64,000 bases of DNA from a virus (IMGVR_UViG_3300029955_000001); one strand, 5' to 3'. Positions 5,829 through 36,700 are shown, counted from the stretch's first letter. Made by a program: numbers and translations. The notes: generated from the letters alone by a model not told the origin.

Positions 5829-7538
5829 TCAATTAGTCTGCCATGCTTGCAAACCAGCGATTGCGAGTTGTAAATCATTAGCAGTTGTACGCAAGAAGAA
5901 CTTCACTAGCAGTGTATCGTTATTGACTATCCCGGTTCCAATATGTAGAGGAACATTCCATTGATCAATTGTATACTCAAAATCTAATCCGTTATACGAA
6001 ATAGAAAACATGTTTGGAACAGGAGGTGCTGTTTCTGTAAATGGATCAGTCAGAGGTTCCGTTGCGTAGTATAAACGATTTAACCACTCGGTCAAATTAG
6101 CAGCACCCACATCAATAGCTACAGTTGTTAGTTGCGCACCAACATACGTAGTAACAGCGTGATTACCTACACCGAATGGTGGCGTTTGCCCTGGACTATA
6201 ACCAATCGTCCAGTTAGCTGCAGCGCGCCCAGTGCCAGCAGCTGCTAATGTAACTGTAACTGTTTGCACATTAACGTACGATGTGTAAATAGGATTCACG
6301 CTACTTAAATTGATCGACACTTCAAGATTCTGAGTAATTCCATAACCTGTAGGATTAAATGGCTCAGACGTAGGTGTTATCGTAACGTATGGACTTACGT
6401 TGAAAACAGTGTTGCGTTCTAAGTTATACAAATACCATTCTAGACTGTAACTATTTGTTATGCTATTCCAAACAGGATAGCAAAACAGTTTAACAGTATA
6501 GATGCCATCTTCGTTTATAGTAACGGCTTGGTATGCTTCAGTAACGAAACGCACGTTGTTAATAGATCCAGCAGTAGCTCCGTAGACAATTTCACCCGGT
6601 GACAATGTGTATTTCAGAACCAGTGGTAATTTCTGTCCAACAACAGTAGCCACGTAATCTCTAAAGCCAAATATCGAGAACTTAGTTCCATCTACAGGCA
6701 ACACAAGAGATGACCCGTCGCTATAGTTTACTACACCCATAAGACTCAATCCGTTTAACGGAACGTTCATCGGGTATTGAATTAGATTAGGATCGCTTGT
6801 GGATAAGAACGGACATTGTAGCGCAATACCGCTTATGTATTTCAGCGAACTATCAGTTGTTCTAATGAATGCTGTATTTTCAACAAGCAGTTGACGTTTA
6901 GAAACCACATTACCATTGTCCGAGTAGAAAACAGCAACAACAACTTCACCATCAGCTAGTTGTTGTGTTGTGTAGCATACCGGCACAGTCTTGATAGATA
7001 TATTCTCTAAACCAGCAGCAGCAACAAGTTCCAAAGGAATCGATTGACTAATCAAATTGCCAGATTGATTATACACAGAACTAATAACTGTGCCAGTGTT
7101 GCTCAAATCTGAACCAAGGAATATTTTACACGAGGTAGCCATACTACCAGCTACATGAAGTCTAGCATCCACAGCTAGCACATTAGGGATTACACTGTTG
7201 TCTACATAAAGACGATAGGTATCGCTTTGTGTGCCAGGACCAACTCCTAGTAAAATGTCTGTTGAGTTAAACGCAGCAGACGGTACAGTAGTTATAGCAG
7301 TAAGCGTAGCTACCATTGTCGTTGGATTGATAGCCGTAACTTTATAATAATCATCTGTCGTGGTATCTACTGCGTAATCATTTAGATTTGGGACAAATTT
7401 ACCTAAGCCTACAGAACCTGTATAAATTTCAGTAATGTTCCAAGTCTTCCATGTATTTGCTGGGTTATACACTGGCGCAACGTCGTCTGTCCCGAGAATT
7501 CCGCTGATGCTCAATGGCGTTATGGTTGAGGATGACAT
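5829..7538 (-). CDS. Virion structural protein (phiKZ gp26-like, tail/baseplate)
   Basis: 569 aa; first gene upstream of terL in the conserved terL-gp26-gp27-gp28 / sheath-tube block. Confidence 0.65.
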   Translation of the reverse strand: MSSSTITPLSISGILGTDDVAPVYNPANTWKTWNITEIYTGSVGLGKFVPNLNDYAVDTTTDDYYKVTAINPTTMVATLTAITTVPSAAFNSTDILLGVGPGTQSDTYRLYVDNSVIPNVLAVDARLHVAGSMATSCKIFLGSDLSNTGTVISSVYNQSGNLISQSIPLELVAAAGLENISIKTVPVCYTTQQLADGEVVVAVFYSDNGNVVSKRQLLVENTAFIRTTDSSLKYISGIALQCPFLSTSDPNLIQYPMNVPLNGLSLMGVVNYSDGSSLVLPVDGTKFSIFGFRDYVATVVGQKLPLVLKYTLSPGEIVYGATAGSINNVRFVTEAYQAVTINEDGIYTVKLFCYPVWNSITNSYSLEWYLYNLERNTVFNVSPYVTITPTSEPFNPTGYGITQNLEVSINLSSVNPIYTSYVNVQTVTVTLAAAGTGRAAANWTIGYSPGQTPPFGVGNHAVTTYVGAQLTTVAIDVGAANLTEWLNRLYYATEPLTDPFTETAPPVPNMFSISYNGLDFEYTIDQWNVPLHIGTGIVNNDTLLVKFFLRTTANDLQLAIAGLQAWQTN

Positions 7539-7547
7539 GCATTTTCC

Positions 7548-10118
7548 TTAAGTGGTTATACTAAGATACTGGGATAAACTAAACGCATCTTTCATATACA
7601 GTTGGATAACCATGTTAACAAATTTGTATATGTAAAGATTAACATCAATCACAATATTCAAGTTATGTGGTTCAATAATTACGTAGTTCGGATCTGGTTT
7701 CAAATTTGATTGAGTGGGATCGAAATCTAATAGGTATTCGTACGGTTGGCAAATGTTTAATACGTCTTGCGTGCTGTATGTTTGTTGAATAATTGGATTG
7801 TCTATAACCCCATTAATTAGGTCATAAATAATCTTACATACAAACGGGCTATATACACGATACAGCGCAGGAATTGTGTTTGGCGTAGTAAATGTAGGCT
7901 CAGGTAGTTTCAATGTCATATAGTTCGATACATTCGTATCAATAACTCGTGACTTAGCAAGTAATGTATACGTGTCATCAGGCACTGTATTTAACAAAGG
8001 AACTATCATCTGTCGAATTAAATACGGTCTTCCGTTCTGAGCATTTGGAACAGATACACCACTATTATCTTCTGAGAATAATACTTTAGTCTTGTCTAGT
8101 ACTTTTCCATCGACCACAATACGAATGACTTGATCATCGCGAATGTCGTAACGTGTATTTTCAGACAATAGCTCATGGTCAATATAACCACTATCCGTAG
8201 ATAAAGTCCTAATTAAATCAGTATTACAGAAACCAGTAAAACGAACATCTACGTGTTGTGTTTGTGTTGTTGGGTTAATTAAAAATTCTTTATTAACAAT
8301 AACAACTCGTGGAAATTTAACGTAATAGTCCAAATTCTCAATTAAAGATTGTCCATTTAGAAATATATCTAACTCGCCCATTGGTATTAACATATTGCCC
8401 AAGGCCGATGTTTCTTTGTTTATTTGCACGGAAGTTAGATTAAATATAATCAAACCATCAACCGGCGTGTAATTAAAATCATACGCTAAGAACGTTTTAT
8501 TACTACGTACTAATGTATAATTTTGAGTCATATCAACTAACCAAGTAAGCTGGCCGTTAATGATAACGTATTTTGAACTACCAGTAACATCAGTCCATAC
8601 ATACGTAGGTGTTCCAGAATCAATAGGACAAACGTACATTCTGTAGTCTAGACTTGGATCAATCGTCTGTGTAATTATGCCGTATATTTCGTCAAGAGTT
8701 TGTGTGCCTTGTCCATAGATCATTTCAACAAGATTCGTATTTGAATTAACAGCAGTATAGGTATCACCTGTTGTGTTGTTATAATAACCTAATAAAACAC
8801 CATTGACATCGTACTCGTAAGCAAATGAACTGTTTATTAAACCTGGTGGTGTATTTACAATAAGTTTGTTTGAGTACGGCGTAACAAACGAGGGCGTGTC
8901 GCCAAGTAGTTTACTTAAAGCGTTATAACCAAACGCATCTTGAGCCATTGTCAATGTTATATTGCGTAGATCACTACGCATGATTTCTGTATACGGAGAT
9001 GCTTCAAGTGTAGGGGCTTGCCAATTAGGCACTGTTGCGTTAAGCCCGACCATAGCAGCTATTACATCACTATCTGTCATTTTATAAAGTTCTTTAATGC
9101 GGTTATTTTCAAACGGTAATGTTCTCGTATAACCGGACTTACGAACGTTCATCCTAATAACCAAGGCATTTGGATTTGTCCATGTTGGTTGACTATTTGC
9201 ATAACCTACCACGTACGCAACAGGAATAGAGTAGTCTTTATGCGTTAGCATTCTAACCGCATCTACTTGGTTCTTGTGGTAATATAGACCCGTATAACGT
9301 CCGCTAGTACTTGGCATAGTTAAAAAGAAATCTATATCACCTTGATATTCAATGCCTTCTGAATTATCCTCACCAGCATAATGTAGTAAGTATTTAAACT
9401 TATTATCAAGTGTACTAGTGAAAGATAACAAATCACTAATATTAAACGTTATTGTTTTATAAATAGAACTATCGTAAACAAACTCAGCTACGTCTCCAGG
9501 TTGCGTGCTAATCAAATCAATGCTTGACGTTAGCATGCCGTTTACAAATGCATATGTCGTACCAGGCAATAACAACGATGCGTTGTATAAATTCTGTAGA
9601 GCGATTATATTAGCAGTTGTCACCATTGTTCCGCCTTGTACATTAACAGTACTTACTACTTCTTCCGCAGCAGGTGTTTGAAAATAAGCGTTAGTGTACA
9701 AACGAATATATAAATTTGGACTATCAAAATGCGTTGGTATTGTTGGTTGTTGTTTTACAGCGACAATATAATCTTTATCTTTCGTTACCATGTACCATAC
9801 TTGGGTACGTGGGTACTGAACACCGTTAATATCGTAAATATCAACAATCATTTTTTTAGTATTGCAAGCTTGTGAGAACGATATCCATTGTTCCCGTGCA
9901 TCTAGTAAACCTAATAACTTTGGACTTATTTGTCCTACCATGTAAATATGAAATACTGGTCCTTGTTCTGGCAGTGTAATTGTTCTCCATGGTAAAGAGA
10001 ATGTATTCCATACACCACCATTAGCTGTTAATCTGGCTGGTTGAGTGATCGACTGCAAATCAGCATTAGGCGCGCACCACATACTTTCTAATGCATTCTC
10101 TATGAAGAAACTGAACAT
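7548..10118 (-). CDS. Virion structural protein (phiKZ gp27-like, baseplate)
   Basis: 856 aa; N-terminal WCAP motif; synteny. Confidence 0.65.
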   Translation of the reverse strand: MFSFFIENALESMWCAPNADLQSITQPARLTANGGVWNTFSLPWRTITLPEQGPVFHIYMVGQISPKLLGLLDAREQWISFSQACNTKKMIVDIYDINGVQYPRTQVWYMVTKDKDYIVAVKQQPTIPTHFDSPNLYIRLYTNAYFQTPAAEEVVSTVNVQGGTMVTTANIIALQNLYNASLLLPGTTYAFVNGMLTSSIDLISTQPGDVAEFVYDSSIYKTITFNISDLLSFTSTLDNKFKYLLHYAGEDNSEGIEYQGDIDFFLTMPSTSGRYTGLYYHKNQVDAVRMLTHKDYSIPVAYVVGYANSQPTWTNPNALVIRMNVRKSGYTRTLPFENNRIKELYKMTDSDVIAAMVGLNATVPNWQAPTLEASPYTEIMRSDLRNITLTMAQDAFGYNALSKLLGDTPSFVTPYSNKLIVNTPPGLINSSFAYEYDVNGVLLGYYNNTTGDTYTAVNSNTNLVEMIYGQGTQTLDEIYGIITQTIDPSLDYRMYVCPIDSGTPTYVWTDVTGSSKYVIINGQLTWLVDMTQNYTLVRSNKTFLAYDFNYTPVDGLIIFNLTSVQINKETSALGNMLIPMGELDIFLNGQSLIENLDYYVKFPRVVIVNKEFLINPTTQTQHVDVRFTGFCNTDLIRTLSTDSGYIDHELLSENTRYDIRDDQVIRIVVDGKVLDKTKVLFSEDNSGVSVPNAQNGRPYLIRQMIVPLLNTVPDDTYTLLAKSRVIDTNVSNYMTLKLPEPTFTTPNTIPALYRVYSPFVCKIIYDLINGVIDNPIIQQTYSTQDVLNICQPYEYLLDFDPTQSNLKPDPNYVIIEPHNLNIVIDVNLYIYKFVNMVIQLYMKDAFSLSQYLSITT

Positions 10119-22278: not shown

Positions 22279-22482
22279 TTAAATTTCTCCCAAATAAGGC
22301 GTTACTTTTCGTTGAAAACAAGTTTGTGCTAGGTTGTAAATAATAGAACGGGATAACGGAGATCCGTTTAAAGTGTCCGCTACTTCGTTACCCAATACAC
22401 CCTGCGCCACGCTAGCTACTAACTCATTAGCGTTAGCTAGTGTTACTAAAGTTCTTTCTGAATCTTGATTATTTAAACCCAT
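22279..22482 (-). CDS. Small hypothetical protein
   Basis: 67 aa; AGGA RBS; tightly packed in the operon. Confidence 0.6.
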   Translation of the reverse strand: MGLNNQDSERTLVTLANANELVASVAQGVLGNEVADTLNGSPLSRSIIYNLAQTCFQRKVTPYLGEI

Positions 22483-22517
22483 GATGTTTTCCTATGAAAA
22501 TAACTATTACGTCGCAT

Positions 22518-22730
22518 TTAATTTTGACCTTTGTATATCTTACACGCCTTAGCGCTAATGACGTTAAGTAAAGTGCATGTTGTTCCAATAATATCTGGAC
22601 TACACACAATACGATTTTGTATACTGAGAGCACCGAATATGGCATCTATTTTAACACCGGATTCGGTAGTGATGTCGTCATTCAGAATTGTGCCAAAAAC
22701 TGTTTTCATTTGATTACAGAACACGCCTTT
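22518..22730 (-). CDS. rpoB: vRNAP beta subunit (phiKZ gp178-like), exon 4 of 4
   Basis: Begins AAA GGC GTG (KGVFCNQMK) right after the intron terminal G at 22731; splicing restores GD-KGVFCNQMK, equivalent to bacterial GDK-x7-K. Confidence 0.88.
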   Translation of the reverse strand, partial: KGVFCNQMKTVFGTILNDDITTESGVKIDAIFGALSIQNRIVCSPDIIGTTCTLLNVISAKACKIYKGQN

Positions 22731-23083
22731 CCTTTTGTCCAATTAGTTCGTTAGACTAACCCGGTGTGCACTGACACCCGCCTACATTTTCATGTAGGAG
22801 CAGATCATATCTTCATCCTCTATTTCTAGTTAGGATGTTTCCCATTTCTGTCCACTTGGACTCTACACCGTGGTAAGCGGTTGATCGTTGAACCTTTTCC
22901 ATTTTACAGGAACTTGGCTGCTAAAGAGGATCTTAGATCCTACGGTTGCCCATTGTAATATCCGTTTCGTTTTTAGACCATGGCTTTGTCTTTCGACTCG
23001 CAGTGGTGAAACAGCTTTAGGGGGTTCCAGCAGTTAGAGAAAATTCATTTGAACATTACTAATCAAATGGACTATATTTTTTA
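22731..23083 (-). mobile_element. Group I intron beta-I3, ORF-less, 353 nt
   Basis: 5' exon ends in U (GGTGAT); P AACTGCTGGAA, Q CAGCCAAG, R GTTCAACGATCA, S GAAGATATGATC; P9 with GAAA loop; ends AAAAGG. Confidence 0.9.
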
Positions 23084-23998
23084 ATCACCTACACCAGCAG
23101 GAACTTCACCTGTGATGTATACTTTAATTGCTAACGTATCTAACGATAACGGATCACCTTCGATTCTAAAACCTTCATCTACGGAACCAGTATAGGCTGT
23201 TTTACCAGCCGCTCGATTACGCTTAGAGAATTCACGATCGTAAGTAGTTACAATACTACGCAATGAATCCGACATGTCTTCAATCATTCCGTTGTAAAAT
23301 ACCTCAATCCGTTCTATTTTACCAATCGTTTTAGCTTGTGGTGTTTGAGCACTTAATATACGTAATGTATCTAATGATTCTTCATCAAAGAGACCTGATT
23401 CAGCTGTAATAGCATCTTCGATTACACATAAAATACTCTCAGATTCCACCTTATCACCAGGTTTGACTAACCGACGTATACTTTGATCAAAATTAACAAC
23501 AATGTATTTTACCTTTGTTGTTGACGTAGATAACAACTTAGCTGCTCTTCTAGAAATAGCAGAGGAATCGTCTAGTGTGGCGTTTGATTCCATTAGCGCC
23601 GTCTTTACCATAATGCCAGATTTCCAAACAACATCGTTTGGATTGAAAAGATCTTTTTCAAAGAAACCTGTATTATAACAAATAAGCTCACTTGTTTTAA
23701 ATACCTGACCAGGGATCATATCTGTTTTCACAGAATGAGGGATCACTAAACCAGCAGCATTACCAAAACGTCTACCTAATTCATATCCAGTTGGTTTTTC
23801 ATCTCCGTCATATTGAACAATAATACCGTGTTCTGAAACAGAAATTACTTTACCAGGTTTCTTTGCGGTCATAGCAAACAGATCGCTTGTCCTGTGAGGT
23901 AACACTTGCTCGTAACCAGTACGAATTTGCGGTTGCGCATAACCTATACAAGACACGACGTGACTAGCTTGAACCGATGCAAAATTTACCCGTTTGGG
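23084..23998 (-). CDS. rpoB: vRNAP beta subunit, exon 3 of 4
   Basis: Begins CCC AAA CGG (PKRVNFASVQASH), in frame with track ORF 23081..23956; ends GVGD. Confidence 0.88.
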
Positions 23999-25434
23999 CC
24001 TTTTGTCCAGTGAGGTCGCTTTACTCTCCTCACCCGGTGTGTTAAGACACCCGCCTACACTTTCATGTAGGAGCAGACTATATCTTCATCCTCTTAGAAT
24101 AAGTAGGATGTCTTCTATTTCCCCAGGGCTTCCTAGGTACTGGCTGATAAGGCCATAGTCGTTGAACGTTCCTCGTATCGTTTCCGATCATTAGAGGCTT
24201 CGCTGCGGATTACCCAATCTTTATCTTTGTTACCGTACCCAGGTAATTATTCTGGCCGCTAGTCAGTTTCCTATACTAGTTTGGTAGATAAAGCTCTAAG
24301 GGACTTCCCGCCAATTAAAAAGAATTTCATTGAATATTACTATTCAATGAGACCTAGATTGTTTATTAAAATTAATACGGATAATATCCGTACCTATAAC
24401 CATCAGAAAAAACTTTTTCACCATTCGATTTAAGACGATAATTAAGTGCAGTTGTTGTCAACCTGTGCCACTTCGCGCACTCTACAGCGGAAGGATATAT
24501 TTTAAACTCACCATTTTCATTATTTACTACTTTTACGCACCGACTACATGAAAAATTATTTAACTCCAAATATGGATCAATAACTTCTCTCCATGGTGTT
24601 AAGTCATGCGCCCAGCGTATTTGAATAAAATTTGGTAAGACAGGTTGATCTTCGCGACGTATCCATTGAGAAAGCGTCGGTAACGCAATGTCCAAGTCTT
24701 TAGCTAACTCACTCATTTGGTTATATGTTGCTATTTCACCAGTAAGTACGTTACGAACACTAATCGCTTTGGAAGTGCTATTCTGCAAAAGAGCTTGCTC
24801 AACTGAAATAGGAATTATCCATGGTTCATTAGAGTGTGATCCGCGATACTGTTTTCGCTCAGGAAACACTCTTTCTTCACCAACAAAGATACGATAATTA
24901 ATTGCATCTTTCGACATACCCATAAAACGAGCACACTCAATAATACTTGGAAATTTTCTAATATTCCCAGTATCTATATCTCTAACCGAAATAGGAATAC
25001 ATTTTGGTGTAATTCCCATTGCACCAGCATGTTCCGCATTTCCTTGATAAGTAGTCCATTCTAAATTATCTAACCAATCATCACCTTTAACGGTGTTAAT
25101 GTGATTGACAACAAGTGAGGTTATGTCTACGCCGGGATGTTTAAAAACATAACACAGTAAACGATGTCTTCCCCATGTTAGGGTATAGTTATCATCACCA
25201 AATATCCGGTAATTTACATAGCCATCAGGATTTCTACTACCTTCCAAATTAATGCGTGTAGTTTTATTGATTACTCGACCATCAATAGAAATTACATAGT
25301 TCGAGTATCCTGGTATTTCATAATAACCAGGAAAATCAATACTTTCTTTTAATTCATGGTTATACATTTAACACTCCTTAATATTCAACATATTATAGTG
25401 TGTTAATTTTATTTTAATTCAAAACAATCTGTTA
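23999..25434 (-). mobile_element. Group I intron beta-I2, 1436 nt, with HNH ORF
   Basis: P AATTGGCGGGAAG, Q AATCCGCAGC, R GTTCAACGACTA, S GAAGATATAGTC; terminal G 23999; splicing joins DRDD to PKR. Confidence 0.9.
24372..25367 (-). CDS. Intron-encoded HNH homing endonuclease (NUMOD4-HNH with C-terminal NUMOD1/IENR1-like repeats)
   Basis: IPGYSNYVIS..GRV; RHRL; VNHINTVKGDD.LDNLEWTT..GN..HA; SIIECARFMG and SAVECAKWH repeats; AAGGAG RBS. Confidence 0.88.
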   Translation of the reverse strand: MYNHELKESIDFPGYYEIPGYSNYVISIDGRVINKTTRINLEGSRNPDGYVNYRIFGDDNYTLTWGRHRLLCYVFKHPGVDITSLVVNHINTVKGDDWLDNLEWTTYQGNAEHAGAMGITPKCIPISVRDIDTGNIRKFPSIIECARFMGMSKDAINYRIFVGEERVFPERKQYRGSHSNEPWIIPISVEQALLQNSTSKAISVRNVLTGEIATYNQMSELAKDLDIALPTLSQWIRREDQPVLPNFIQIRWAHDLTPWREVIDPYLELNNFSCSRCVKVVNNENGEFKIYPSAVECAKWHRLTTTALNYRLKSNGEKVFSDGYRYGYYPY

Positions 25435-27078
25435 ATCATCTCTATCTGAAGCTGGTGAAAGTAAAGCTGTGGTGGATATTAACGCAGTAGCTCCAGTTTC
25501 CCCAATCTTGTATCGGCGAGACATTCCACGTAATGAAGTGAACTGTGGGTCAGCTGATAAGTACGTATTAACCGCTACGTCCTTACTATCCGAAGTAGCT
25601 TCAGATATTGTACCCATATCGTTAGCGTGATAGATACGTGCGTTCTTAGTCATACTGCGACTATTACGACCACCAGTACCAGCAAATGTTACTGCTTCCA
25701 TTTCTTTCAGATTCTGAACTGGATTTATATCACTAACTAATGCTACGGATGGATCTTGCATAATGTTTTTCCATACAGCATAGGGATTCAAATCAATTGG
25801 TACTTTTGATTTTCCTATACGACCATTATGTCCACGAATAGCCCTTACAATTTCACCATAGACAGCCCCCGCCATACGCTCGTAACCTTTAATACGCATG
25901 TACTGCGAATCAAGTTCATCAGGATGTTTATCATTTAACAACATCTGACAGCTACGAATTAATAGATCTCTGAAATTTAACGGCTCTTTCATTTCTATTA
26001 ACAAATCACGTGTAATGGGATCAATATACATCTGGTATAACAAATCAATTTCACGAACATAACGAGCGCTAGCGCCGTTGTTCTCTAAGACATTTAAATA
26101 AATACCACGTTTGTCGAATTCGTGAACACTATACTGACGAATAACTTTATGGTATTCATTAAAACCAGCCAGTATCATGGATGCTTCTTTATTGTCTTTT
26201 TGGAACACTAAAGTCTCATCACTAAATACAATAGGATATTCATTTGGCATTAAGTTAACACGAGTCCCCGCAGGTACTCTACGTGGGTTTACTTTCAATA
26301 ACTTAATTAGTCTATCCAAACCAATTTCATACCCAAGAATAATACCAATTGGAATGGTGCGACCTAACACCTTTGCCTCAGCAAAATCAATTGGTTCTTT
26401 ATCTATATCAAGGCCGAGCAATTCCTCAATCGTGCCGAATGGTTGAAGAATACCGTCTGCTGTGATGTAGATAAAATCATTCTTATCTAGAACTAATAAC
26501 GCATCGCTTTCTCGTTGAACGCCATCTGAATTAACAGCGTGCCCAATAATGATTGATCCATCTTTTTCATAGATCGCTATTGATTCTCTGCCGTAAAGAG
26601 CTTCGCGTCTCGTGTGATCAAACTGTAAAGCAAATGTATACGTGTAGGCTTCATCGACGCGAATTTGCTGTGGATCAAATGCTACTTTCTGCTTAGGAAC
26701 AGCATTATTTTGAGACATCACAGACTGATGTTTTATTTCAGCCCATTTACTGATATCTTCTTCTGGCTCTTTTTCTTTAAAGGCAATGTTACTTGGCGTT
26801 GGTCGTTTTACATCTGGACGTTCGGCTGTTAATGTAAAACCACGGAACCCTAGCGCTAACGTGCTGTAAAGTTTAGGACAATCAAACAAATTATCAAACA
26901 CTGTACCAGGGTGCATACTTGTTACTGAGTCATCTGTTGGATCTAGTCCTTTAGCGACAATCTGATTGCGAAGCCATGTACCAGAGTCATTAACGCGTTT
27001 CTCGCTACGACTAACAAACACTGTACCGTAGTAACTAGTAAGCTTTACCGTATCTGGCGATGTCTTACGAATTGGAAG
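25435..27078 (-). CDS. rpoB: vRNAP beta subunit, exon 2 of 4
   Basis: Begins CTT CCA ATT CGT AAG (LPIRK); contains GTGGR, GTISEATSDSKDVAVN; the first 39 aa of the track ORF are intronic. Confidence 0.88.
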
Positions 27079-28399
27079 CATTCCAATTAAATGGACCATA
27101 TCATCATCCTCAACATTACTTGTTAGGATGCCTACCATTTCGGGACTATTAATCCCTACTCTACTTGCTTTAATTACTAAATTAATAGCAACCATCTGAT
27201 TTTACACAGATGTTATTATGCGATGATTTGCAATAGCTTTCGATGGCCTCTGAACACACTCCGTATATTAAAATAAATACTTAGGAGCTTCGTTGCGGAT
27301 TATGTCTTTTAATAACGTTTTTACTATTCTCAACACTTCCATTACTGGGTTGAGTATTACAGTGTGTTTCCACCTGTAAGTAGTAGTTATTAAAATTATA
27401 GACGTTTTCCCGCAGTTAGATAGGTTTTGTTGTACCGTATTACTACGATACGGGGACCGGTAAATGAACGTACAAAAATAAATTAAATTTAGAATAAGAC
27501 GTGGAAATTATTAATATTTTTTTCCAGTTCTTTTACAATGTCTTTAACGAGGACACCACTTGGGAGCTTAAACGTATCGTAAACTTCAAGGGCATTTCTA
27601 AAGACTTGTAATTTTCCATCAACAACAAACCAATAACGATAAATTTGTTTAAGTCTCATTACCAGTTCTTTTTCTACAGAATCACTTTTGAGATGTAGAT
27701 AAGTTAAAACGATTAAATACTCTTTTCGAGCTTTAATAAAAAGCTTTTTTAATTCATCGTTTTCTTTTGTTCTCAAATAAACTTCTTCGCCACCAAAAAT
27801 ATCGATAGGCCTATAATGTTGCAAACCATTAAATTCGATATGAATGTTTAACTTAGGTAAAAAGAAATCACTTCTTAGGAGAGATGGTGATAATCTAAAT
27901 TCTCTAATATGTTCAATATTAAAGTTTTTTAAACATAACTCGACAGCTTTCTCACCTTTTGATTCCATACAAATACGACAACCGGCTTTATTCGAAAGAT
28001 GACCGTTTGGTTTCTGCCAAAACGATCCATGCGTAGGACAAATTATTTCTACATGTTCTTTATTGCCGTTATACTTAACCTTACTATAATCGTATTTATT
28101 ACCATGAATTAACTTAGCGTCTTTTATAAATTCTTCTGTAGTTTTCTTATGTTCTTCTATAAAACATTTTTTACACCCACACCCAGCTAAATGTGAACAC
28201 GCTTTCTGATAAAATAACCCGTGTCTTAGACACGTAATAGTTAACTTATCATGAGCTAGAAATATTTCTGGTAGAAGATCATAGTTGTTTGTTTATAAAA
28301 CGGATGGTCTTTTATTTCTTAATTTATTTAAAAATGTTTCTTTGTTCATTGTAGCCTTTTTATCATACAGTAATAAAACCTATATAACAATGGCTTTCA
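27079..28399 (-). mobile_element. Group I intron beta-I1, 1321 nt, with a disrupted endonuclease ORF
   Basis: Guide sequence GTCCCCG (27457-27451) pairs with exon end TGGGGAT via U-G; P AACTGCGGGAAA, Q AATCCGCAAC, R GTTCAGAGGCCA, S GATGATATGGTC; terminal G 27079. Confidence 0.9.
27489..28349 (-). pseudogene. Intron-encoded endonuclease (two Zn-finger repeats + PD-(D/E)XK/Vsr-like domain) with premature TAA at codon 19
   Basis: ATG 28349 is in frame with track ORF 27489..27968 (286 codons plus stop); TAA at 28295-28293; C-x2-H...H...C-x2-C repeats; SDFFLP...IEFNGLQHY nuclease motif. Confidence 0.75.
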
Positions 28400-30205
28400 A
28401 TCCCCACGTTGTTTACGTAAAGAGTACTTGATACCATTCACCGAATAAGTACCGTCTTCTTTTATTACGGGTAACTTAAACTCCATCGTAGATGTTGTCC
28501 CGTCTACCGGAGTAATTCTAACCTTATGTTTGTCATACGAACCTAAAACACTATCTTCACGTTCTACCTCATAGCCCGTTACTGCGATCCCGGCCTTCTG
28601 AACATTCATCACCATACCAGCCACATCTCGAGGCATGATATCAGTAACGTAGAGACGATCAAAATCATGTAAACTCGATTTCAACATACTCTTATCATGG
28701 ATAGTTTGTTTGTCGGCAATCGTAGTTACTGATTCGATAGCTAGTTGTTTTGGCTTAATATCAATAAACTTATCTAACGTCGTCTTGCCATCTGGCGAAA
28801 CGATTGTTCTATAAGACTTTGATAACGTTTCATAACGTCGATACTCTGCAGCTGATAAACGACCAATATCTGCTAAACGATCACACACCTTCATTACACC
28901 ATCTTCTAGTGTTACAGGTTCATCAATAATGATATCTTCATGATGGCTCGTTGTGCTGTCGTTATGCGATCCGACATGTGCTCTAGAAATAGCTTCTAGT
29001 TCTGCTAAGTCCTCATCTAACCGAGCATCTAATTCTGCACTATGCGTTATATCGGCACCAGTATCGTCAGCGTGATCAGAATGTAGTGGATCGTAAGTTA
29101 CTTCACTAGGTGGCGGGTTCTCTGTTTGCTTCAATTCTACAGCACCTGTAGCGCTGTTAATAACAGGTAATGATGTTGCTTGTGTAATAACAGGCGAAGC
29201 ATTAGGGGCTGTTTGTACAGATACGCTATTATCGGAAGAATCAGTAGCGGTAACCGTAATATCAGATTTAATATCAACAGGAGTATTTTCTTTATCCCGC
29301 TGAACTTCATCTGTAACATCCGGCGAAGCAACAGTGCGCGCGTGAAACAAAGCCATCATCAAACGTAAGAAACGTTTCTGAATTTGAGACGGCGTTAAGC
29401 CCTTTATATTTGCTTCTGGATCTTCTTCCAATTCTTCTTCAGTAGCAATGCGCCATGAATTTAATTTACCCAGGTTAATGGCAAACCAGCGATTAGATTC
29501 AATAAATATTAAATTAACCTTATTCATTTCACCATCAGGCACGTGTGATAAAACAGAAGTTTTTCTATTATCACCTAACCATTTATAAATCTCTAAAATC
29601 ATTAAGCTATCAGGATTATTAAAGATCTTTACGACATGTTGCGATATACCAGATGATCCTAACCGAAGATCTGGTAAACTAGGTAATACAGTAGGCAATC
29701 TACAAGTAATGAAATTTTCTCTATCAGAAGTCGCCGTTACTACCGCTATATTTTTCCACACAGCTGATTGTGTATTCCACCATTTATAATACTCACTATA
29801 AAACGAACGTGGGTAACGATACATTTCTTGAAGAAATCCGTAATTATAAATAACTAGTGTATTCGGATCACGAGTGCTTATTTCAAGTGTTTTCATAAAA
29901 CGAAAACGACGATTTTTACTATGGAAATGTCTTATTAGCCCCATTGGATTAATAGCGTGCCTTCTTGGCATTCCCTTCTCATCTCCTAATTCAGTAATAT
30001 GACCAACGTTAATTGGTTTTGAAATATTACGAAACAAGAAGTCGTCAGGATCGGGGCCCATCACTATTGGGCTAGTTGATACATAGTGTAAAATAGATCT
30101 CTTTGGTAAATCTAACAGATCCATTTTTGGACATGGTGGATTCATCAAGTGCTCTGCTATTCTTACGCCATATTTTCTATACCAAATGTCATAAAAAAGA
30201 TTCAT
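28400..30205 (-). CDS. rpoB: vRNAP beta subunit (phiKZ gp178-like), exon 1 of 4; spliced product about 1525 aa
   Basis: 602 codons ending LRKQRGD at the intron 5' splice site; exons of 602+548+305+70 aa join in frame. Confidence 0.88.
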
Positions 30206-30210
30206 TTTAA

Positions 30211-30379
30211 TTATCCATCTGTTAGATTATAAAGAACAAAAGCAACTGTTGCTACGTCTATGCTGGAAGTAAACCTACCATCTGTTCCAACATAAGCTCT
30301 CTTTTTAGTAAGGTACTCGTCTACTTCTTTAACTGCTTCGTCAGAGTACGTTGCGTTACTGCTGACAGTATCGCCATCA
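30211..30379 (-). CDS. rpoC: vRNAP beta-prime subunit (phiKZ gp180-like), exon 2 of 2; absent from the ORF track
   Basis: T + GAT GGC GAT ACT... = (F)DGDTVSSNATYSDEAVKEVDEYLTKKRAYVGTDGRFTSSIDVATVAFVLYNLTDG*; completes ADFDGD. Confidence 0.9.
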
Positions 30380-32168
30380 CTTACATATTACTTATATTCA
30401 TAGTAATATGTTACTTTACATCACTGTAAAGAATAGACTATATCTTTATCTTTTACTTTCATTGTAAGAAAGCAGTCAGATATCTCCCGTTTCGACGGAT
30501 CTCCCGATCGGTCTACTTCCTTGCGGAATAGTCGTTGAGCCTTATCCATGCCCTTGTGAGGTTTAGGATCTTGGTTGCTATAGGGATTCTTAGAATCCAC
30601 GGTTGCCTCACAGTTTATTAATAAAACAATATTAATAAAAGCAGTACTGAACGCGATTAACTTTCAGTATAATGTAATATTCTTAAGCATTCACGCTCTG
30701 GTTTTCACCACACGTTGTAGCTATTACACTTTAGAGGGTTTCCAGCAATTAAAGAGATTTATTTTCATAGGCATTTCGGCCTAAGGACTCTGATTGATAT
30801 TAAATTCTTTTTACTAAATATTGGTTTTTTATAAGTGACTTATTACTAATAGCGTGCATAATCATTCCATTTCCTCTATTAAGAAAAACAGATGCTTTTG
30901 CATAACTTGTAAATAATTGTTCAGTATTTGTTTTTGTATCAGTGACTATTACACCAGTTGTTTTTCCAACCGGATTAGCTAAGTATACAGTTATTTCATT
31001 TTCTGTATACACAGGCCATGGCGTTTCATCATTTTCCATTTTAAAATCATAACCTTTTAATGGTCGGTGATTTCTTTCATCTTTTAAATAAGAATGTATA
31101 GTCATAACTGCGCAGTTTGTTGCTCTGCTGCAATCAGCCACACTGGAATATGTATTTATAACGCCAGTTACAATATTGCGTGTTTTAACTGAAGTAGGTA
31201 CTCCAATATGAAGTTTACGATCAATTGTTTTTTCTTGGTCAGTAACTTCTCGCCACGACGTCGCGTCTGTTTTAAGTTTGAATTGTAAAAATCCAGGATA
31301 CACTGGTTGATTTTTAGCTTTTACACGATACTTAATTGTATCTTTGTTTAAGTTTAAATAATCTGCGCAGTCTACGTATCCTCTAAATTCTTTTACTTCA
31401 CCAGTAACAACATTACGCATTAGAACTGTGGAGTCTATATTTTGTAGACCATTTTTCCATGCGTGAATGTTATTGTCTTTTCTTGTGGACCATTCTAAAT
31501 TTTCTAATCTATCATCACCGGGTATTCCGTTAATGTGGTTTGTTACAAGTGAATCAACATTAACGGTGTAAGGAAGCCATGCAAGACAAATTAATCTATG
31601 TCTTCCTATTGATGTATCGTTACCAACATCTGGAGTGATTTTATATCTAGCATACCCTGTATCGAAAAAATATTTCAATACTCTACCACTGGTCGCGTTA
31701 ATAAGATTGCCAAATTTATTAATAGCGTAATTACTAAAGCCTGGTATGTATGCGTAATCTGAAAATTTATAATGAAGCATTCCGCCTTCTGGGAATTTCC
31801 ACACTAGGTTACTTGGGTGACAGTTCTTTTTATTACCATCGACAAACATTACATCTATTCGGTGCCAGTGATGAAAAGGAACTGCAATTCTTTTAAAAGT
31901 TAATGCAACTAATACTGCAACTTTATAGTTTTGATACCCGTTCCACAAACACGCATAAACTAATAAATTTCCATCAGCATCTACGGTGTGGGGAATAATA
32001 CTGTTGTCACTTCCTTTTACCTCTCCCTGGTAATTAATGGAGTAAGCATTACTGGTAATAGGAATTCTAAAAAAACCTTCTACTTCGATATATTTTTCGA
32101 ACATGTTATTTACTTATGTTGTATCTACATAGTATACATATTAGAAAAGAATTTAATAATTTTACTTA
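30380..32168 (-). mobile_element. Group I intron in the beta-prime catalytic motif, 1789 nt, with tandem-HNH ORF
   Basis: Guide GAGTC (30790-30786) pairs with exon GACTT; adjacent ATCA pairs with 3' exon TGAT (P10); P AATTGCTGGAAA, Q AGCAACCAAG, R GCTCAACGACTA, S AAAGATATAGTC; terminal G 30380. Confidence 0.92.
30800..32104 (-). CDS. Intron-encoded HNH homing endonuclease with duplicated (degenerate + intact) HNH modules
   Basis: First module DVMFVDGNKKNCHPSNLVW; second VTNHINGIPGDDRLENLEWST..DN..HA; C-terminal SVADCSRA-type repeats. Confidence 0.88.
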   Translation of the reverse strand: MFEKYIEVEGFFRIPITSNAYSINYQGEVKGSDNSIIPHTVDADGNLLVYACLWNGYQNYKVAVLVALTFKRIAVPFHHWHRIDVMFVDGNKKNCHPSNLVWKFPEGGMLHYKFSDYAYIPGFSNYAINKFGNLINATSGRVLKYFFDTGYARYKITPDVGNDTSIGRHRLICLAWLPYTVNVDSLVTNHINGIPGDDRLENLEWSTRKDNNIHAWKNGLQNIDSTVLMRNVVTGEVKEFRGYVDCADYLNLNKDTIKYRVKAKNQPVYPGFLQFKLKTDATSWREVTDQEKTIDRKLHIGVPTSVKTRNIVTGVINTYSSVADCSRATNCAVMTIHSYLKDERNHRPLKGYDFKMENDETPWPVYTENEITVYLANPVGKTTGVIVTDTKTNTEQLFTSYAKASVFLNRGNGMIMHAISNKSLIKNQYLVKRI

Positions 32169-33625
32169 AAGTCAGCTCCTAGTCGTGATAATTTAGCACT
32201 GTGTGGAATTGTACTATTTACAAACGCACCATCTTTAATAGGGAACTCATAAGCAGTGTGTTCAGCATCCATTGGTTCCCACTGATCATTCAGTTCTGAC
32301 CGTACTTCTGATACTGTTGTTGTCTTTACAAAAGCTTTGCTAGGGTAAATACTACCAACACCAGTAACAGGATAACGTGTAATGAATATTGGAAATTTAT
32401 TCAACTCAGTATAACAAGATAAATAAAGTAGTTCACAGAACGTCAATGGATGTACATCATCTTTATTTCTTTCCAATGGCAATTCGTCTATATCTTGAAT
32501 TAGCTTGAAAGTGTTATCGGGTCCTTTATAAATAAGACCAAGATAGTGCCCTTCGATAATAATTGGTTTATGCCTGATAGCTTCTTCTGAGAAACTTGTA
32601 AGGACTTTTTCTATTCCTTCATCTGTCATCCATTTATCGAAGTATTGTGGTTTTAAAGCTACTTCCTCACAATGTAAAGTATTAACATTGACCAGCTTAG
32701 CTGGCGCTCCTACTTCTGTGAATACTTTAGATAAGAACCCATGTCGAATATGATATCGTGCTACAGGCATAATAGATTTTAATAACTGATACAACCCAAC
32801 GATTGTGTTATTAAAACCTACAGTACCTGGCGCGCCTAAATAAGATACACTGGTATCCATTCCTGTAATGACATTACGTGTACCGTTCATCAAACCACGG
32901 GTTGCCCATTTACCTAGTAAGAGTTTATTCTTACCTTCTAACATGGCTTTGATAGTATTGTAAATTTCGTTAAAAGTTAGTTGTAAGTTATACCGTGCTC
33001 TGTCTAGCATTTCGGCATTGGTCTTTACAGCACTTTCAGAAATTGTATTTGCTATTGTTAGTAGCTGTCGGTAAAGTTTATTGATTTCATCTTCACGTGG
33101 GCGGCCATCTGGGCCTATTTCTACATCTCGATAACCAGCAGGCATAACCAGTACTTTTGGCGTTAAAGCAACTTTCTTATATTTATTTATCATGAGAATG
33201 CTTTGTTCGCGTAACGGACTGCCGGTTTGCTCAAACTCTATATTTTCCCAATGTTCAAGGAAGAAATTGAATCCTGTTTTACCAACTAGATTATTAGATC
33301 TTTCAAAATTCTTTAGTTCTTCATTCCAGGTAACATACTCTGTACCGTTAATAATACCACCATACAAGCGTTTAAGCTTAACAACTGCTTCGTAGATTAT
33401 TGGATGAAAAATAGGTATCTTAATATCGATAAAAGAGAAACGAAATAACCGTCTGTCATCTCCTTCTTTACCAAAAATAAGTGTAGAAAACAAACCATCT
33501 GGGTTGAATAAATTACTAGAGCCATCAAAGATATCTAGCTTAGTAACAGGTCGCATATTTTGGAGTTTATTGGGTGTAAGCTCCAAAAGAGTTATGTTAA
33601 AAGGTATATCAGAACGTTGTGCCAT
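32169..33625 (-). CDS. rpoC: vRNAP beta-prime subunit (phiKZ gp180-like), exon 1 of 2; spliced product about 541 aa
   Basis: FNPDGLFS..IFG, PAGYRD, GTRNVIT, ITRYP motifs; ends LGADF. Confidence 0.9.
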
Positions 33626-33708
33626 TAGGCTTCCTTTCTGTAATTAAAACAGATTACGCTAAAAGTATGAATAGTGACACTTAAAGCTTAACTCATTTGA
33701 GGTAATAC

Positions 33709-36700
33709 ATGGCTAATAAAACAAAGTTCGAATTAGACCAATTTGGATTCGATTCATCGTTAGATATTTCTAATCTTGATTTTAGCAAAGCACCTAAGAT
33801 TAAAAATGATCGATCGCCAACAACACATACTGCTATAGGAGTTGCGAAAGGTATAAAAAAGTCCGTTATTACTTCGGCTTTTATTACCAATGCAATTAAA
33901 GCTGCTCTTCCAAAAGGATATGGTACGGCAGCAGATTTTGTTGGAAAGTCCACAAGTGGCATTAAGAATCTATACAATGATACTGCTCGGGATATTAAAC
34001 CACTAATTAACGATATAAAACGGACAACAGATAAAGTTGTCACGGCAGCAGATTCGGCAATTCCAAAAAACATTGCTGAGAAAATAAAGAAATGGACAAA
34101 GATTGAACAGAGCGCGTATCGCAGTATGTCGCCGGAAGAACAACGCGATGCAGCTTTGCGCATGCAGCTAGGTGAGATTTTTAACTTACAAACGCAAACA
34201 ACATTAAAACAATCTGCCAGAGATACAGCTAGAGAAAACATTAAAACTGGACTAGAACATAGTAGACATAAAGATCAAATGTCGCAGCTGGACGCTATGC
34301 GGATTAGTCTTCAGCAGATAGCAAATTATCAGCAAAAAATAGATTCTGGTTTTCAGCGTAAATCTTTGGAACTACAGTTCCGCCATTACTACGTTGCAAA
34401 AGACACGTTAGAAGAAATGCGTGTTTTTAATACAAACGCAATGCTTCAGTATCAGACTATTGCAAAGAATACAGGCTTACCTGATTTTGTAAAGTTAAAG
34501 ACATCTGAACGCCTTAAAGAAGTTTTACGCAATAACTTTATTAACGCCGCTAGCGCTAAGATTGATGCAAAACGTAAAGCATTTTTTAAAGACTTTACTG
34601 ATAGTTTATTACGCCAAGCTAAAGGTAAGCTATCGGGCTTTAGCAACGGCGCTAGAGAAGGTATGGGATATGCTGATCACTTAGATCAAGCTGGTGGTAT
34701 GGCGAGTATGGCAGATAACCCGCATGAAGAACGTGGTGATATGGCAGGGACGTTTTTCGGAAGTTTATTATCTGGTTCACTAGGTACTTTTCTAGGTAAG
34801 AAAGCAAAACCACTAATAAATAAATATACTAAGGGGAAAGTTGGTAACAGCATTCATCGTGTTGGTCATAAGTTACAGTATTTTCACGACGATGCGCAAC
34901 AAGCCGCATTAGAAACAGCAAATAATTGGGACCCAAAGAAACATGGTAAAGTTCTAAATGCTGTTGCTAAGTTTCTTGGGGATGCTGTTAAGAACACAAC
35001 TATTTCATCTACGGGTTTAAAGAGCGATAATCTTAAAGACATGCAACAACCTGCTCCGTTTAGTAGGCAGATAGCAAAATCTATTACTGAAATTATCCCT
35101 GGTTATTTAGCACGCATGTTACGTGAAATGCAGATGACGCGTACAGGCAAACCATCTGAGCTTACGCATTATGATTTCACACGAAATAAATTTGTTGGGG
35201 AAACAACGCTTAGAAGAACTATTCATGAAAGCATTGTTAACAAGACCGCTGTTAAGGACATCAGAGCTAGCGCTGATAGAATAATTGATACTGTTGACAA
35301 GAATAAAAAATTATCACCAGAAGCACGTAAGCATATTGGTGAACAATTAGTTCGTAACAATATCATTAAGAATATATCGGGCACAAAACGTAATTTAACT
35401 GATGCTAAACATTTTCAAGGTAAAGCAGAGCCACATGCAGCTGCGTGGATTTCTGCTTATAACGAATATCTCGGTAACGATGAAGCTGGTCATAAAGAGA
35501 ATCATGTTCGTGAAATGTTTAGAGATGTCGGGCAACACATGGAAGATGTTCGTTCCACTGTTGAGGACTATGATACAGCTGGTTACGGTTCGCATCTTAG
35601 TAAAATGGGATTTACTAAGACCGGTGAAGACACAATCAGTGTTGCTACTCTTACGAAGAAAGAACGCGATCTTTTAATTAAGCTTGGTATTCTTTATAAG
35701 GATAGAAACTACATTAATGTTAGCGCTATTAATAGTGGTAATATTAAGTTGATTGAATCAATGGGTTTAAAAATACCTAGTGGCAACTATGTTAATTTGC
35801 AGGGAATTAGCGAGATGTACGCTAGTGGGTCTGGCGCAGATGAAGGTGATAGTGGTCCAGGTAGACGTCGTAGACGTTCTAGGGTTCCGTTTGGCCCTCG
35901 TAAACCACAAGGTCCTAGTGCTGGTTTACACGCTCCATCTTCTCATGCCGATCAGCAGTTTCAGCATAATACGCAACAACGCAATATGCAATCGAAATTC
36001 GATCATGAAACTCGAGAAGCTATGCGTCATCAAGGTAAACCGTTTGCACACCAGACTGGTAACAATCCGCTAAATAGTCCGGTTTATGAACATCATTTAA
36101 AGTTAGCAAAGGAACGTGCTAAGCAAATATCGAAAGAAAACGCGCAAGGACATTCTAACGCATCAAGGTTTGAAGCTTTCAAGAACTTTGGTAAGCGTAA
36201 GATGGCTGATTTGCATTCTTTTGCGGAACATCACCAAATTAATAATCGTGCACACGCCGCTGTTGGTGGGGTAAGGAATACCCTTGAAGACATGCTTCAT
36301 TTTGGAACGCATAAGGCATCAGAAGCTAAGACGATGTTTCACGGTGCTGTACATGAGGCACATGCTAAAGCAACAGCTTTTAAGGACTCAGTTAAAGAAG
36401 CAGATTTAAAGAATAAAGCTGCATCTCATACTGGCATGGCTAAAAATACTGCTTCAGGGTTGTTTGAAGCGGCGCATGATAAAGCGGTTGGTTGGAAAGA
36501 CAGAATCAAAGCTAAAGCAAAAGAAACAGTAACCGCAACGAAACACGCTGTTGAAGAATTAAGTAAGCACGGTATGTTCAAAAAACATATTGGGATGGCA
36601 GATTTAATTCCTGGTAAGAAAGGTAAGCCAGTATCTGCTTTAGCGTCAATCGATGCTACTCTAAAACGTATTGAGAAGAAACTTAAAGACGGCATTGGCA

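Follow-up and report, generated by a model that had tools for sequence, protein, structure and literature searches.

The 64,000-nucleotide (nt) stretch of viral DNA IMGVR_UViG_3300029955_000001, called the window below, contains on its minus strand (22518..33625) two neighbouring virion RNA polymerase (vRNAP) genes, beta'-N and beta, which are interrupted by four group I introns. The introns are identifiable by family, their junctions are defined to the base, their splicing is seen in environmental RNA, the junctions map to conserved polymerase motifs, and the same insertion sites recur in other phages. We regard them, with a probability of about 0.85, as four functional members of one phage intron family, residing in an uncultured phiKZ-like peat jumbo phage and probably accompanied by nuclease-driven homing and competition. 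The insertion sites are numbered 1 (ADF/DGD), 2 (RGD/LPIRK), 3 (DD/PKR) and 4 (GD/K), a slash marking the junction; positions are those of the window, and all features lie on its minus strand.

The Rfam model RF00028 (group I introns; gathering score 50 bits) recognizes exactly four elements in the window, all inside the beta'-N and beta genes and all above the gathering score. Intron 1 (32168..30380; 1789 nt; 51.9 bits at 30811..30414) splits the Phe codon in GCT GAC TT/T GAT GGC GAT, before the second Asp of NADFDGD; it opens with T AAG TAA, i.e. with an in-frame stop, and ends in G. Intron 2 (28399..27079; 1321 nt; 55.0 bits) lies in RGD/LPIRK (GGG GAT/CTT CCA), starts with TGA and ends in G. 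Intron 3 (25434..23999; 1436 nt; 92.5 bits) interrupts DRDD/PKR (GAT GAT/CCC AAA CGG), and intron 4 (23083..22731; 353 nt; 56.6 bits), which has no open reading frame (ORF), interrupts GVGD/KGVFCNQMK (GGT GAT/AAA GGC); both start with TAA and end in G. Thus in four of four cases the 5' exon terminates in U, the intron terminates in G, and an in-frame stop is found at, or no more than two codons past, the 5' splice site. The interval 22731-32168 is bounded exactly by the final base of intron 4 and the first base of intron 1. The closest cultured relative is Burkholderia phage FLC9 (ca. 60% protein identity), whose uninterrupted gp41 and gp40 are colinear with the six window exons over all four junctions (tblastn). 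The spliced ORFs specify 541 (beta'-N) and 1525 (beta) amino acids and contain no internal stops.

Three peat metatranscriptome runs and one DNA run were compared with positions 22300-33800, and all four predicted junctions were found to the base in RNA contigs. The joint 30378/9 to 32168/9, which skips the 1789 nt of intron 1, occurs in runs X11 (29 nt on the shorter side) and X12 (72 nt); 27078 to 28400, skipping 1321 nt, occurs in X11 (102 nt); 23998 to 25435, skipping 1436 nt, occurs in X12 (43 nt), with a matching 11-nt loose end in X11; and 22730 to 23084, skipping 353 nt, occurs in X11 (220 nt) and X12 (255 nt). The DNA run gave a single colinear 20.5-kb contig with zero exon-exon joints. 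The four introns are therefore spliced out of RNA at precisely the junctions deduced from the proteins; the RNA contigs include unspliced as well as spliced forms. Inteins and split genes were dropped as explanations, since the RNA contigs show removal at the RNA level.

Some of the RNA contigs go back on themselves over 359 nt (23999-24357) and 423 nt (30380-30802) of the minus strand, i.e. they are cyclic assemblies. In these the intron's terminal G (intron 3 and intron 1, respectively) is joined to an internal site after a U, as would fit group I chemistry, and this internal site lies at or just past the nuclease stop codon and immediately 5' of the guide sequence. The contig for intron 3 is 389 nt long (359 + 30) with a reported depth of 166. 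They resemble truncated intron circles that comprise the ribozyme core; the nuclease mRNA would remain as a separate linear piece. Another RNA contig, the 960-nt record 13 of X11, matches the 3' part of intron 3 (23999-24615) over 617 nt with no mismatches, and continues past the 3' splice site with 343 nt that are absent from the window; it could be chimeric, or could stem from a further copy of the intron, located elsewhere in this genome or in that of a relative.

Single-sequence methods are uninformative here, because the polymerase has diverged too far. Pfam searches with the exons and a phmmer search of PDB with FLC9 gp40 gave nothing useful, and a BLASTP pairing of KPGDKV with QPGDKM of Escherichia coli RpoB was a chance match that was overruled by profile alignments. 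The junctions of the beta gene were instead placed with a profile of 43 intron-less full-length beta homologues (alignment A1). As a profile hidden Markov model (HMM) it matches Thermus thermophilus beta (E = 1.6e-16), aligning drDD/pkR with EHDD/ANR and GD/KgVfanQlK with GD/KLANRHGNK; by hhalign it is colinear with E. coli RpoB across 907 columns (Prob 92.5, E = 5e-7). Site 3 (D1068 D1069/P) falls on E. coli beta D674 D675/A676 and site 4 (G1372 D1373/K1374) on G1063 D1064/K1065, with K1382 on K1073, each with high confidence per column; a downstream ...SR... (R1106) is also aligned. For site 1, the global hhalign alignment of beta'-N with RpoC passed over DFDGD, and a local alignment of the C-terminal part was needed; this covers RpoC 391-515 (E = 9.4e-4) and places ADFDGD on E. 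coli beta' 459-464, with the junction at F461/D462.

The initial annotation of this DNA had placed three of the four introns within active-centre motifs, namely ADF/DGD in the Mg-binding Asp triad of beta', GD/K in the equivalent of E. coli beta GDK-x7-K (K1065 and K1073), and DD/PKR in the equivalent of EHDDANR. Each of these equivalences is confirmed by hhalign, the two in beta also by the T. thermophilus HMM, and none of the three junctions falls outside its motif. The count of three is an understatement, as the fourth junction (RGD/LPIRK) also lies in a block of top conservation. Here QRGD/MP aligns with E. coli beta Q148 L H R151/S152 P153 (SQLHR/SPG), a block which we take to adjoin the N-terminal rifampicin-resistance cluster; the hhalign confidence at this position is moderate and the HMM domain alone is not significant. 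Within the phage family, the site 2 block is as conserved as the other junction blocks: in the 43-sequence alignment local conservation lies at the 96-99.8th percentile at site 2, the 95-98.5th at site 3 and the 95.6-99.5th at site 4. The chance of three random junctions all falling above the 95th percentile is ca. 1e-4.

Three of the introns contain nuclease genes, all of which occupy the P1 loop, downstream of the 5' splice site and ahead of the guide sequence. Intron 1 has a homing endonuclease ORF of 434 amino acids (30800..32104; HNH_3 42.3 bits against a cut-off of 24.8, NUMOD1 37 bits; phrog_59) with 34% identity to phiKZ gp179 (E = 9e-59). The HNH homing endonuclease of intron 3 (331 amino acids; 24372..25367; NUMOD1 28.5 bits against a cut-off of 22.8; phrog_59) is 50% identical to gp210 of phage PhiPA3 over 321 amino acids, the full length (E = 5e-108). 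Its HNH_3 score of 17.5 bits is below the cut-off; the motif GRHRL..NHIN..NLEW is aligned and conserved with gp210. Both ORFs are full length with an intact HNH motif (GRHRL...NH.N...NLEW), and Pfam also matched I-HmuI_NUMOD-like. Intron 2 bears a gene of another type (27489..28349), with Zn-ribbon repeats and a nuclease domain, belonging to phrog_559 (E = 4.9e-40), a separate and widespread family of phage homing endonucleases; it shows 36% identity to the ORF of the same-site intron of Vibrio phage vB_pir03 (pir03 below). Its 286 codons are open save for an in-frame TAA at codon 19 (28295..28293), and the first ATG, GTG or TTG past this stop, at 27968, would yield just a 159-amino acid C-terminal part. 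To judge from its reading frame, this gene is probably decaying.

The same polymerase codons are occupied in other phages. A search of 1.8 billion representative proteins with exon 3 of the beta gene was evaluated by projecting the termini of the 150 best matches onto FLC9 gp40: about 30 of these 150 start at site 3, 6-10 start at site 2 and 13 end at site 4, seven of the 13 exactly at ...GD. Likewise, 12 of the 120 nearest beta'-N clusters end in AD or ADF. A survey of cultured records with 100-amino acid junction peptides, as the initial annotation had proposed, found all four sites to be polymorphic, the sequence running uninterrupted across the junction in 198 of 229 records at site 1, 274 of 297 at site 2, 233 of 283 at site 3 and 209 of 224 at site 4. 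In 79 IMG/VR loci all eight insertions of more than 150 nt in the two genes lie at site 1, 2 or 3; the loci were retrieved by their site 2 and site 4 motifs, which is biased against interruption there, so that low occupancy at sites 2 and 4 is not a frequency.

An intron at AD/FDGD, with gp179, is present in phiKZ and part of its genus and is polymorphic in presence, since sister phages lack it. The DD/ intron is found in PhiPA3 (with gp210), in Serratia 2050HW-type phages and in Klebsiella phage phiKp_32. Phage pir03 has insertions at QKVD/VPIRK in beta and at ADFD/GD in beta'; its two introns score below the Rfam gathering threshold and were called from protein junctions and conserved P7-like sequence. 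Bacillus phage vB_BspM_AgentSmith (AgentSmith) carries an intron with an HNH ORF at GIGD/KVVFGNQMK (Rfam 81.8 bits). Two metagenomic loci have two introns each: L006, with group I introns without an ORF at ADFDGD/T and GD/KGVF, and L005, with introns at both DD/PKR and GD/KGVF. Across phages the NADFDGD codons thus present five intron positions (AD/F, ADF^D, ADFD/G, ADFDG/D and ADFDGD/T). Two of them are combined in L027 (IMG/VR UViG 3300002026_000025, 6511-8840), where two group I introns stand back to back in these codons: GCTGAT is followed by an intron with a 503-amino acid nuclease ORF, a 9-nt micro-exon TTTGACGGT (F-D-G), an ORF-less intron and GATACAAGT.

The introns of pir03 and AgentSmith are not annotated as such in their records. 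In the former (locus L009, 459-9002) the exons are annotated as separate hypothetical proteins, and in the latter (L010, 865-6990) the names 'putative HNH endonuclease' and 'hypothetical protein' are given to the beta gene and its last exon, respectively. The gp180 gene of phiKZ (L003, NC_004629, 4476-7560) is annotated as 490 amino acids ending in ...GAD, without the FDGD exon.

In intron 1 the exon end GACUU is paired by the internal guide sequence GAGUC (30790..30786), in intron 2 GGGGAU is paired by GUCCCC (27457..27452), and in L006 GGUGAU is paired by GUCACC. In most introns compared, a conserved (A)GUCC stands directly 5' of P2. The 5' exon ends in GAU for introns 2-4 of the window, for phiKZ, PhiPA3, both introns of pir03 and AgentSmith, as well as for L005, L006 (two introns), L046, L055, L086, L063, L053, intron A of L027, L033 and L083. 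The exceptions among the 5' exons examined are intron 1 of the window (GACUU) and intron B of L027 (GACGGU), the guide of the latter, GCCGUC, being paired with GACGGU. Compared with the phiKZ intron, intron 1 is displaced 2 nt downstream; the Asp codon of the window is GAC, and hence the U at the splice site is provided by the Phe codon. This 2-nt shift in the presence of a GAC codon suggests that pairing at the RNA level constrains the position of the intron within the motif.

Introns 3 and 4, which occupy different sites, are nearly identical from P7 to P9 (23999-24110 and 22731-22830, minus strand) and have the same last 11 nt (TGGACAAAAGG). Their likeness suggests, as far as sequence comparison can tell, recombination between introns within one genome. 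The introns of relatives at sites 3 and 4 have similar ends, GGACATAAAG and GGACAGAAGG. A blastn search of cultured phages with intron 4 returned short conserved-core matches only and was uninformative on sites.

Introns in chimallivirus RNAP genes have been described for phiKZ gp55 and gp180, 201phi2-1 gp273/274 and PhiPA3 gp211/209 (PMC11512511, PMC10914365, PMC11620839). The counterpart of intron 3 is the gp210 intron of PhiPA3 (gp211/gp209), which has the same insertion point after DD (E. coli D675, phiKZ gp178 D1072), the same GATGAT exon end and, ahead of the ribozyme core, a nuclease with 50% identity from end to end. Gp210 nicks phiKZ gp178 beside D1072, giving PhiPA3 a competitive advantage in co-infection (PMC11620839; Birkholz et al. 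2024, Science). Intron 3 differs in residing in an FLC9-related peat phage, where it is one of four in the operon. On the strength of this identity and the shared site, its nuclease would be expected to nick the intron-less allele site-specifically and to bring about transfer of the intron.

The counterpart of intron 1 is the gp179 intron of phiKZ gp180, likewise a group I intron (Rfam 92.2 bits) in the NADFDGD codons, though inserted at AD/FDGD, 2 nt upstream of the TT/T site of the window; its HNH nuclease has two modules and 34% identity to that of the window. According to the later papers that cite them (PMC10914365, PMC11512511), the phiKZ intron was predicted by Mesyanzhinov 2002 and Ceyssens 2014. 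Splicing of phiKZ gp180 was undetected in long-read RNA data under the conditions tested (PMC10914365), in contrast to intron 1, for which spliced RNA was seen. As the window does, pir03 has sites 1 and 2 occupied, and AgentSmith has a group I intron at site 4; the AgentSmith intron includes a nuclease gene whereas intron 4 does not. The DNA polymerase introns of Bacillus phages SPO1 and SP82 (I-HmuI, I-HmuII), cited in a chimallivirus review (PMC12908238), likewise belong to group I, interrupt a conserved polymerase motif in an essential phage gene and encode HNH + NUMOD nicking-type nucleases; marker exclusion against relatives has been documented in their case. They differ in having DNA rather than RNA polymerase as the target, a single intron per gene and an unrelated host group.

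On the reading we prefer, that of spliced and mobile introns, the guide would pair with the last bases of the exon (GAU in three exons, GACUU in one) and cleavage would follow the U. Removal of the introns restores NADFDGD, SQ..D-LPIRK, DD-PKR and GDK-x7-K in frame, and the stop at, or within two codons past, the 5' splice site ends translation of unspliced RNA. By analogy with gp210 and gp179, the HNH nicking endonucleases of introns 1 and 3 in all likelihood act on intron-less alleles of relatives, nicking them close to the same codons, after which the intron could be copied into the relative (homing) or the virion polymerase gene of a co-infecting competitor disabled. The nuclease of intron 2 would be in decay, and that of intron 4 may have been lost or never present. 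Conserved catalytic codons would be the sites because there the nuclease targets do not vary even between distant phages, and because the enzyme would work only after exact excision.

That conserved active-site codons offer a wide homing range and protection against imprecise loss is explicit in the chimallivirus review (PMC12908238), and it is in keeping with this rationale that the same sites are occupied repeatedly, and polymorphically, in distant phages. The initial annotation went further in stating that escape is blocked, which is too strong: phiKZ escapes gp210 through the point mutations D1072A/G/Y at this very Asp (PMC11620839), and 'invariant' sites are consequently not escape-proof. 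Its expectation that the encoded nucleases cut intron-less alleles finds good support by orthology for intron 3 and is plausible for intron 1 (gp179, 34%); as worded it fails for intron 4, with no ORF, and for intron 2, with its in-frame TAA.

Several observations weigh against the reading of functional, mobile introns. An intact nuclease gene is missing from two of the four introns, and for this phage nuclease activity, homing and competition are deduced from orthology and not observed. Exact junction searches of IMG/VR at sites 3 and 4 found no intron-less alleles of this phage. By inspection, P1 of introns 3 and 4 has just 3-5 base pairs with a GUC:GAU core. The joint of intron 3 depends on one low-depth contig (43 nt on the shorter side) and the 11-nt loose end, the three RNA runs probably stem from a single sampling campaign, and the assignment of site 2 to E. 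coli R151/S152 carries only moderate alignment confidence.

Some of the same facts would suit introns that have become fixed, immobile passengers, which splice but neither home nor harm and owe their position to ancient insertion combined with the impossibility of imprecise loss. Intron 4 without an ORF and the interrupted ORF of intron 2 are what such a history would leave, as is the lack of intron-less alleles in the exact IMG/VR searches at sites 3 and 4; moreover the DNA runs with a high word share all retain the stretch. Yet the ORFs of introns 1 and 3 are full length with their HNH motif intact, and polymorphic occupancy among near-identical phiKZ-type phages speaks for continuing gain and loss within the family, so we consider passengers rather improbable. 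We would give still less weight to the proposal that RNA-level targeting, not the nucleases, sets the sites, a GUC:GAU lineage having spread to Asp codons by reverse splicing or ectopic insertion, with those at catalytic codons persisting and the active-centre bias arising as a by-product. It accounts for the GAU at the end of nearly all 5' exons examined, for the conserved (A)GUCC 5' of P2 in most introns, for the fact that introns at different sites are about as alike as those at the same site (60-72%), and for introns without an ORF at sites 1, 2 and 4. A 3-nt core is, however, too short to choose four or five sites among the many GAT triplets in ca. 6 kb, and orthologous nucleases in same-site introns of distant hosts are the signature of nuclease-driven homing. 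Phage group I introns are not known to reverse-splice into DNA-encoded sites.

The introns might also act as regulators, the efficiency of splicing gating the output of late virion polymerase subunits. Four introns in one late operon, the coexistence of spliced and unspliced RNA contigs, and the stop after every 5' splice site, which makes protein output strictly dependent on splicing, are all compatible with such a role. Stops just past the 5' splice site are nevertheless usual in phage introns, and most relatives do without these introns (198/229, 274/297, 233/283 and 209/224 cultured records uninterrupted); we judge regulation very improbable.

We would venture one further reading, held with much doubt. 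A single GUC-guide group I lineage may have specialised for Asp (GAU) codons and inserted repeatedly and independently at every catalytic Asp of the phage RNAP active centre: five positions in the 15 nt of DFDGD, including a two-intron relative with a 9-nt micro-exon, and beta D675 and D1064. RNA-level recognition would then matter as much as nuclease specificity, and circularisation past the nuclease stop codon would be a dedicated means of releasing the nuclease mRNA.

The habit of mobile introns of residing in conserved catalytic motifs is known, and the present case is a well-documented new example rather than a new mechanism or kind of element. What is novel is the density, with four introns in the operon (three in beta), each in a block of top conservation, together with splicing seen in environmental RNA and a cross-phage map of landing sites. 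No description of introns at sites 2 and 4 was found in the literature searched. The 'intron as weapon' case of PhiPA3 gp210 is extended to an uncultured peat phage, and the DFDGD loop, SQ..D/LPIRK and GD/K suggest three further candidate nuclease/target pairs in virion polymerase genes. A few polymerase codons serve as landing pads in phages that infect Pseudomonas, Vibrio, Serratia, Bacillus and soil hosts. Since many records truncate or mislabel these genes, the landing-site map is useful for annotation, and it also helps in the choice of homing endonucleases for studies of phage-phage competition.

The six exons are as follows. Exon 1 of beta'-N (32169..33625; 485 codons + 2 nt) ends in ...LGADF and has 59.9% identity to FLC9 gp41 residues 1-485, with an hhalign match to E. 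coli RpoC of E = 1.1e-6; exon 2 (30211..30379; T + DGDTVSS...NLTDG + stop) has 75% identity to gp41 residues 486-538. Exon 1 of beta (28400..30205; 602 codons), ending in ...RKQRGD, aligns with FLC9 gp40 residues 2-653. It is followed by exon 2 (25435..27078; LPIRK...SPASDRDD; 548 codons; 55% identity to gp40 residues 652-1142), exon 3 (23084..23998; PKRVNF...PAGVGD; 305 codons; 64% identity to residues 1144-1446), for which the search of representative proteins gave 1212 homologues, and exon 4 (22518..22730; KGVFCNQMK...; 70 codons + stop; 58% identity to residues 1447-1513). In a megablast search of cultured phages the 12-kb operon had no nucleotide-level match, and a search of IMG/VR for close relatives with exon 2 found nothing. 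Synteny of the vRNAP operon and homology with phiKZ gp175-gp181 and FLC9 indicate a phiKZ-like jumbo phage as the probable source. The window DNA is nearly complete in several peat and permafrost metagenomes (2018-2025) and partial in peat metatranscriptomes, which identifies it as that of a jumbo phage of soil or peat, uncultured and actively transcribed in its habitat.

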